A DNA stretch of 55,566 nt, filler included, from Sluysia triapertura (Eukaryota), in the NCBI GenBank assembly GCA_046118255.1. It is 4 parts of 4 records of this genome, joined end to end, with 100 filler letters (N's around TTAATTAATTAA, not from the genome) between each part and the next. Parts side by side here need not be neighbours in the genome. Positions count along the whole stretch, not along the records: positions 38,449 to 55,566 come from JBJNIA010192605.1; 3 more parts are not named here. One strand, written 5' to 3'. Under the pieces are notes generated by a model. The model was given only the letters and a program-made list of their open reading frames with translations. It had not been told where the DNA came from and did not search any database. The position numbers were made by a program, and so were the translations under genes. Of the stretch, positions 41,640 to 42,690 are shown one piece after another (positions within the stretch are counted from its first letter, which is position 1; each line of letters starts with the position of its first letter).

Positions 41640-42690
41640 ATTCTAAGTAGAATTTGAACAATCGAACAACTTCAAACCACAACTTACTAAATACAAATGT
41701 AAATCCCGATATTTTATAAATACCTACTACTGAAAATATTTGAGATATTATAAGAGCAGTGACTTTAATAATTACATGTATGCCTATTAATCCCGAAAAA
41801 GCTTGTCCTTTACTAGGAAATTTCCCCATATTTGTTTTAAAATATTATGTGCCGCTTTCTTAAATGATCAGGTCCTAATAATTTACCTTACCACCTTTTT
41901 TTACAATTGCCTTATTGACTATATCTGTAAGTCCTTTTGATATCTTAATAGGAAATAATATTTCCTGAACTCAGAATATTTTTCACAGCTGAAAATTTCA
42001 ACTTTGTTTTTAATTCAGTTAAGCCTATAGTTTCTAGAGTTTTAACTTGGCTACGGTGTGTTAAAGATATCTATAAATTATCATCAATTTTATATTCTGG
42101 AGCCATGACATTAGAACAGTGTAGTGTTTTTGGTTTGACTTTATTAGTTGGCATAATTCTTGTTACCGGTTCTAAATAAGTGTTTTGATATTTGTATATT
42201 ACTGGCAATTCATTAACATATACATTTTCTTGTCTAATTTGTACTTCTACTTTTTTACATTTATAAGTATATCAAACCTCACCCATTAATCTACTAAAAA
42301 CTCCTAGAGGGAGTAATGGTTCCACTAAATCTGGGTTGGTTATTGCTACCACTAATTTAGTTCTTAGTATTTCTTTATTTAATTGACAGTCTCTAGCTAT
42401 CATTGCCTGGTAGACTTTTTCTAATGACCTTAGTCCTAAATGATAATAGAAATCGATTTTATTATTAAAATATGTATTTAATTTTAATTTTTTTTGTATC
42501 TATTCCTTTCTTAGCTTGTAATATCGTTTGTTCGGATAAATATATTTCTTAATAATTTGTTTCTGTAATTTCTTGTCCACATCTGATTACTAGCTTTTTT
42601 GATACAAATATCAATCCATCTTCTTTGTTTGCCATTAGAATTGAGGGAGTTTCTACTTCATTAAGTCTTTTTTTCCGGTAACCTTGACAC
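41640..42690 (-). pseudogene. Endogenous chuvirus-like (class III fusion) glycoprotein / retroelement env remnant, C-terminal half including the TM region
   Basis: Manual translation: RCGQEITETNY*EIYLS..(frameshift)NTYFNNKIDFYYHLGLRSLEKVYQAMIARDCQLNKEILRTKLVVAITNPDLVEPLLPLGVFSRLMGEV*YTYKCKKVEVQIRQENVYVNELPVIYKYQNTYLEPVTRIM..CSNVMAPEYKIDDNL*ISL..SSG..KQIWGNF..GQAFSGLIGIHVIIKVTALIISQIFSVVGIYKISGF. The order of motifs matches chuviral glycoproteins as I recall them; intronless. Confidence 0.82.

Follow-up and report, generated by a model that had tools for sequence, protein, structure and literature searches.

A decayed env fragment on the minus strand

In this study we analysed a 55,566-nucleotide stretch of DNA from Sluysia triapertura (the window; GC content 24.7%), four parts of the genome joined end to end. 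On its minus strand we found a decayed internal fragment of a gB-type fusion glycoprotein gene (env) of the Pfam family PF24664, together with scattered gypsy-type pol debris. The features on which the analysis is based are the following.

41695..42680, minus strand: decayed internal gB-type (PF24664) env fragment, with evidence from Pfam, tblastn and our own env profile and from family cover in read data, which falls off at both ends
About 42677-42513, 42493-41963, 41961-41866, 41864-41811 and 41808-41695, minus strand: the five env segments, in frames -2, -3, -1, -2 and -1, in this order
41638..41829, minus strand: 63-aa ORF with an ATG start, of which about the first 44 codons are env and the last 19 or so are read-through into the flank
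40770..40981, plus strand: scrap of gypsy RT-connection/RNase H in the orientation opposite to that of env, with 74% DNA identity to window positions 1-192
3..424, plus strand: second RT-connection/RNase H scrap (Pfam RT_RNaseH, E 4e-14; RT_RNaseH_2, E 5e-16)
23178..23384, plus strand: second, more decayed env scrap from the central helix region (own profile, E 4e-5; tblastn, E 2e-4)
37363..37702, no strand assigned: left member of a 330-bp direct repeat pair around env, 83% identical to the right member, with more decayed termini
43926..44262, no strand assigned: right member of the same pair, with terminal inverted repeats and a near-perfect 8-bp target duplication

The main env frame (42490-41900, stops read as X; here P0001) matches PF24664, Monjiviricetes_fusion, with an E-value of 4.2e-22 (78 bits, cut-off 27). 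This match supports the original prediction in its reading of the locus as the fossil of a gB-like class III fusogen. The frame on the TM side matches the same Pfam family (E 3.4e-5), and in tblastn the fragment matched the relatives P0002, P0003, P0005, P0006, P0007, P0008, P0013, L004 and L005 with E-values down to 1e-51. With these E-values, and with no env matches in reversed and complemented windows used as controls, the homology is not due to chance.

Our own env profile was built from seven relatives, and the fragment covers only positions 252-600 of it. Hence the signal peptide and approximately 250 N-terminal residues are missing, and what is left corresponds to the last ~350 positions of the profile, TM helix included, interrupted by four stops and four frame changes. 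Alignment to intact relatives resolved the path into the five homologous segments listed above, so the predicted frameshifts are real. The in-frame stops begin at 42551, 42274, 42073 and 41877 (first base, minus strand); three of them had been predicted, at 42549-51, 42272-74 and 42071-73, and the fourth (41877-41875) is added here. All predicted motifs were recovered by six-frame translation on the minus strand and in the expected order. Both parts of the motif WGNF..G..FSGLIG are present, but WGNF and FSGLIG lie in different frames. Similarly, the env assigned to 41640..42690 is real, but homology extends only from ~42680 to ~41695. In tblastn most of it stops at 41695-41701; therefore the end of the 63-aa ORF, formerly taken as the end of env, is flank read-through. 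A 75-aa stop-to-stop frame is also present in the fragment (42499-42272).

Surroundings of the fragment

Beside the env fragment we found no gag, no colinear or upstream pol and no LTR, and in the six frames of 38401-41702 and 42701-46002 there were no remnants of N or L and no Pfam family of any kind. As predicted, gypsy pol debris lies nearby on the opposite strand, about 660-720 bp from env. Since the flanks are devoid of gag, pol and LTRs and the nearest RNase H scrap is inverted, the linkage of env to pol in the host genome is one that we infer. LTRs were absent from the window and from the relatives L004 and L005; the present copy is an internal piece, and the contigs of L004 and L005 may stop short of the element ends. 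Around the fragment, the 330-bp pair is the only long direct repeat, the repeated sequence itself running over 37363-37691 and 43926-44255. We considered it as a pair of LTRs, which its terminal inverted repeats and 8-bp target duplication rule out; from such termini we take it to be a hAT-type MITE, as is likely.

The second env scrap at 23178-23384 gave no profile match in reversed and complemented controls, and DNA alignment of the two env scraps yielded short, non-colinear matches only.

The remainder of the window holds pieces of host genes and of DNA transposons. The former comprise an exon of 4-hydroxyphenylpyruvate dioxygenase (11650-11850, plus strand, E 8e-28), a rhomboid exon (23563-23700, plus, E 0.003), a weak P-loop helicase (36440-36880, minus), an ORF with an HR1 repeat (48185-49000, minus, E 7e-6) and an UNK-like CCCH finger (53594-53878, plus, E 7e-6). 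The latter are a piece of a DDE_3 transposase (24222-24659, minus, E 3.5e-7) and an HTH piece (19743-20057, minus), which is presumably mariner-like. There is also a 513-aa open frame (16945-18486, plus) that matches no Pfam family and is unusual at 25% GC. No tRNA genes were found in the window.

Relatives carry env upstream of pol in one reading frame

A search of longer proteins gave a single match among 634 candidates, P0002, in which PF24664 is joined to retroviral proteases; P0003, from the same cluster, is an ORF of 4,844 aa comprising env, proteases, ankyrin, RT, RNase H and integrase. A second protein search gave five env proteins among the 8,000 candidates scored, and from a cluster of this search came P0013 (3,003 aa), with env before PR-RT-RH-IN. 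A metagenome scan added three loci out of 294 pattern matches. L005 contains a complete ORF of 3,703 aa with two CCHC knuckles (gag), env and PR-RT-RH-IN, and L004 a 5'-open ORF of 3,426 aa with the same domain order. Hence in P0003, P0013, L004 and L005 env precedes PR-RT-RH-IN within one ORF. The original prediction had expected env downstream of gag-pol; in these relatives it is upstream of pol and in the same frame.

In the relatives Pfam further recognised two zf-CCHC motifs (E 4e-10) and ankyrin (E 5.5e-6, P0003) and, more weakly, Ty3_capsid (E 0.048) and ubiquitin-like stretches (E 0.005-0.023). A BCL2-like stretch lies just before env (P0005 residues 9-80; L004:860-1255), with a Pfam E-value of 1e-3 in P0005 and matches to Bcl-xL chains at E about 0.01; a three-row profile of this stretch reached only E 0.26.

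We compared P0001 with 12 env rows. Two controls were taken from viral_contigs: L001, a gypsy element whose env follows pol, and L002, in which a G gene lies beside a mononegavirus-type polymerase and which is the only true viral G in the identity comparison and in the trees. Identity was highest to the env of the env-pol ORFs (L004 47%, L005 46%, P0003 44%, P0013 43%) and to P0002 (44%), P0005 (43%), P0006 (42%) and P0008 (40%), followed by L006 (32%), the insect-type env of L001 (29%) and P0009 (27%) and finally the viral G of L002 (18%). The original prediction had left the choice between a virus and an LTR retroelement. With 43-47% identity to the env of gypsy polyproteins the retroelement is supported, and with 18% to the one true viral G compared the endogenous chuvirus is not; a captured env of the arthropod type is likewise not supported, given only 27-29% identity to insect-type env.

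In a tree of 13 env rows the window falls, with moderate support, into a 10-row group with the env-pol rows (93/97, unstarred), and this was also so in an 11-row tree without P0002 and L006 (90/90, unstarred). The terminal branch of the window row is long, and no sister of it is starred. Summed tree distances from the window are 1.4-2.4 changes per column to the env-pol rows and about 6 to the env of L001 and P0009. AU tests allow the window row beside the insect-type and the viral rows (p 0.066 and 0.138), and the tree therefore leaves the branching order of env unsettled. Judged from the sequences, then, the affinity to env-pol elements is carried by identities and distances and not by branching order.

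Scans of viral_contigs with the fragment, the clade alignment and the RNase H scrap found nothing, and a scan with a wider alignment returned only L001-L003; in three viral_contigs scans there was thus no close viral relative of the env clade. An Atlas search with the env of P0002 led to PF24664 clusters (score 0.95), which do not separate virus from retroelement. Among these viral contigs, L001:1-9150 is a gypsy element, closed into a circle, in which an insect-type PF24664 env comes after pol. L002:1-4398 and L003 carry divergent PF24664 G genes, and in L002, which served as an outgroup only, an unassigned 409-aa ORF and the mononegavirus-type polymerase follow G.

Pol debris of the window

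The RNase H scrap at 3-424 was ranked against 105 pol proteins (100 found with this scrap and five labelled ones added). By summed bits the top five of the 105 were L004, P0018, L005, P0003 and P0013 (189-198; next 166). In P0018 the ORF itself lacks env, and over 1,881 columns the protein shares 53% identity with the C-terminal half of L004. The same five lead the 60 matches of the piece 40773-40856 of the other scrap; for its piece 40856-40951 the env-pol elements are mixed in among 102 matches (3rd, 10th, 25th and 46th). In a FastTree of scrap 3-424 and the best 45 of 95 usable rows, the scrap groups with L004, P0018, L005, P0003 and P0013 (support 89, unstarred). With the RNase H scrap taken in two halves, the pol of L001 comes 47th of 105 for one and 15th of 95 for the other. 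By sequence likeness, the scrap at 40770-40981 is likely to come from the same element family as env. Env and pol debris of the window, though not colinear, point to the same clade.

The env family in public read data

Two public DNA runs contain the region: X1 (0.80 of words) and X2, which is filed under another organism code. Among the public runs listed, no RNA run contained it. In X1 we found 3,200 contigs on 41600-42720 (1,121 bases), of which 116 are at least 99% similar to the window, 438 are at 95-99%, 1,360 at 90-95% and 1,286 under 90%; that is, 2,646 of the 3,200 are less than 95% alike. With so many contigs on the scrap, the env family is highly repeated. Summed depth in X1 reaches 2.8e5, compared with 13-19 in the eight longest listed contigs, a sum that is not a copy number; allowing for up to 31 overlapping words per base, a rough reading would be hundreds to thousands of copies. 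X2 has 195 contigs on the env region. In both runs family cover drops to background at either end of the env homology, and 17 contigs of X1 and six of X2 diverge from the window sequence at 41697.

The three stop codons named in the original prediction differ in nearly all of the summed depth of X1: inside each codon, 98.8-99.8% of it carries another letter. These stops are therefore particular to the present copy or to a few copies, although the contigs are short and cannot show any single copy to be intact. In X1 a contig whose depth is that of a single copy (15.4) spans 41765-42035 and departs from the window by two letters and no gaps. Hence the breaks within this interval are present in the read data, with the reservation that X1 may be the source sample, in which case this contig match is not independent support.

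Predicted fold

The model of the fragment is poor (pLDDT 49.6) and matches generic helices only, at best with Z 6.0 on a single helix. The model of the relative P0005 has a mean pLDDT of 49.3, mostly high over residues 178-440. It matches herpesvirus gB (Foldseek E 9e-9, TM 0.12) and, as its top viral fold matches, models of chuviral G (E 5e-29), with low TM-scores of 0.12-0.28 for its matches. These predicted similarities agree with a class III fold, without being proof for the fragment.

Discussion

The scrap is a dead, internally truncated PF24664 env. From sequence comparison we consider it highly probable that its source is a Burro-like Ty3/gypsy LTR retrotransposon which is highly repeated and has intact relatives with env in-frame upstream of pol. 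The family is most likely Burro-like; we filed it so from the published description of Burro and not from named Burro sequences. The gag-env-pol architecture of the relatives is already published, for planarian Burro (PMC6431247).

Judging from the relatives and from the description in PMC6431247, the parent element would be transcribed into one long mRNA and translated into a polyprotein of Gag, possibly a ubiquitin-like and a BCL2-like part, Env, protease(s), RT, RNase H and integrase. Env would be threaded into the ER by the hydrophobic stretch that immediately precedes its ectodomain in the alignment of the relatives, and anchored by its C-terminal TM. Host peptidase and the protease of the element would then cut the polyprotein into Gag, Env and Pol. 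Assembled into a trimer, Env would work as a class III fusogen of the gB type and let particles into neighbouring cells. As for the present copy, a member of the family was probably inserted and later underwent deletion, local inversion and neutral decay.

The original prediction had considered a potentially infectious LTR retroelement. The present copy has neither a signal nor the N-terminal part (domain I), is broken by its four stops and four frame changes and is unable to fuse membranes; domain I is the part that carries the fusion loops (PMC13524379). In S. mediterranea BURRO1 is silenced by PIWI (PMC8532177). As the copy is dead and BURRO1 is under PIWI silencing, the only plausible role left for it would be, at most, that of a small-RNA template for silencing of the family.

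Three other origins have to be weighed. The best of them, although we regard it as quite improbable, is that env belongs to a gag-env-pol gypsy lineage separate from Burro proper, or to a non-autonomous env-carrying derivative amplified without pol. Gag-env-pol arrangements also occur in bryozoans and nematodes, and GAG-ENV-POL elements are not monophyletic (PMC13524379). The long end branch of the window row without a starred sister would fit a separate lineage. However, the nearest relatives share the giant ORF of Burro, its CCHC Gag, ankyrin and weak ubiquitin-like and BCL2-like stretches, and matching RNase H debris occurs twice in the window.

We give very little weight to a plain non-retroviral endogenous viral element (EVE), in which host retroelement enzymes inserted a cDNA copy of a chuvirus-like G mRNA that later multiplied as a passenger. 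The scrap does belong to PF24664, the predicted fold of P0005 finds its best viral matches in models of chuviral G, the present copy has neither LTR nor gag, the AU test allows a position beside the viral row, and such EVEs are common in arthropods (PMC10084718). Against it stand the 18% identity to the one viral G compared as opposed to 43-47% to retroelement env, flanks without a nucleoprotein or L family, viral_contigs scans without a close viral relative and the thousands of related contigs on the scrap. Known Chuviridae and Jingchuvirales G EVEs and the env of the BEL/Pao element Anakin (PMC10084718; PMC7642597) share PF24664 and the motif order with our fragment; they differ in that the viral and insect-type rows compared are only 18-29% identical, that the pol debris of the window is gypsy-type and that env comes before pol in the nearest relatives.

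Just as improbable is an env of the insect kind, from a gypsy errantivirus with the conventional gag-pol-env order or from a BEL/Pao element like Anakin. PF24664 env does occur in these elements (L001; PMC13524379) and pol debris is nearby, but the env of L001 and P0009 is distant, the pol of L001 ranks low for the RNase H scrap, the RNase H scraps match gypsy-type pol, and there is no pol on the upstream side of the env scrap.

Returning to the Burro-like element, a bolder possibility would be that the family is among the most amplified enveloped retroelements of its host, that most of its copies have an open env, that a second species has it too, and that it spreads even now between cells or animals as an infectious particle, its herpes-gB-like fusogen being cut from a single giant polyprotein, i.e. 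as a living non-insect errantivirus. We regard this as unlikely. Infectious particles made with a Burro-like env were an open hypothesis in PMC6431247 (2019), and our literature search found no tests of it. A host with so many copies would be a good place to observe the formation of such particles. The locus itself is minor, one dead piece among very many, and useful as a marker: it points to a host with a heavily amplified gag-env-pol gypsy family. More generally, matches to PF24664 or 'chuvirus glycoprotein' in animal genomes can be the env of retrotransposons and not traces of past chuvirus infection.

Among known systems, elements with a gB-type env in GAG-ENV-POL order are described from flatworms, bryozoans and nematodes; in arthropods a chuvirus-like env is found next to gypsy pol (PMC13524379). 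The HSV/gB-type GAG-ENV-POL errantiviruses of Platyhelminthes, Bryozoa and Nematoda resemble our family in being multi-copy with a class III env before pol (one element of S. mediterranea has 215 copies according to the supplement of PMC13524379); they differ in being intact, and we liken them by description. We infer that Burro corresponds to these GAG-ENV-POL errantiviruses, the main text of PMC13524379 not using the name. The description of Troyka elements in PMC12440569, in the part available, held nothing bearing on env.

Planarian Burro/GYPSM1 is described as present in thousands of copies, with one ORF of about 4,900-5,100 aa, a Gag with two or three CCHC knuckles, and Ubi/SUMO-like, BCL2-like and ankyrin motifs. 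Its env lies in-frame between gag and pol and matches fusion proteins of mononegaviruses, and decayed Burro fragments with stops and frameshifts are known from Dugesia japonica (PMC6431247). The relatives share with it a mononegavirus-like env in the middle of the ORF (3,000-5,000 aa), CCHC Gag, ankyrin and weak ubiquitin-like and BCL2-like parts, and the family of the window shares the very high repeat content and the decayed fragments. The window copy differs in being only a dead piece of 1 kb, its likeness being to Burro as described. L004 and L005 differ in an ORF for a DEDD-type exonuclease downstream and a TM-bearing tail after integrase, which are not among the Burro features described in section 7 of PMC6431247. 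This ORF (L004:10617-12107; L005:12085-13473) matches RNase_T weakly (E 1.4e-5 and 1.1e-3). The polyproteins run 400-1,500 aa beyond integrase (P0003; L004:8900-10279; L005:9850-11205) into hydrophobic, TM-like sequence of no clear Pfam family, and P0003 contains six protease-like stretches.
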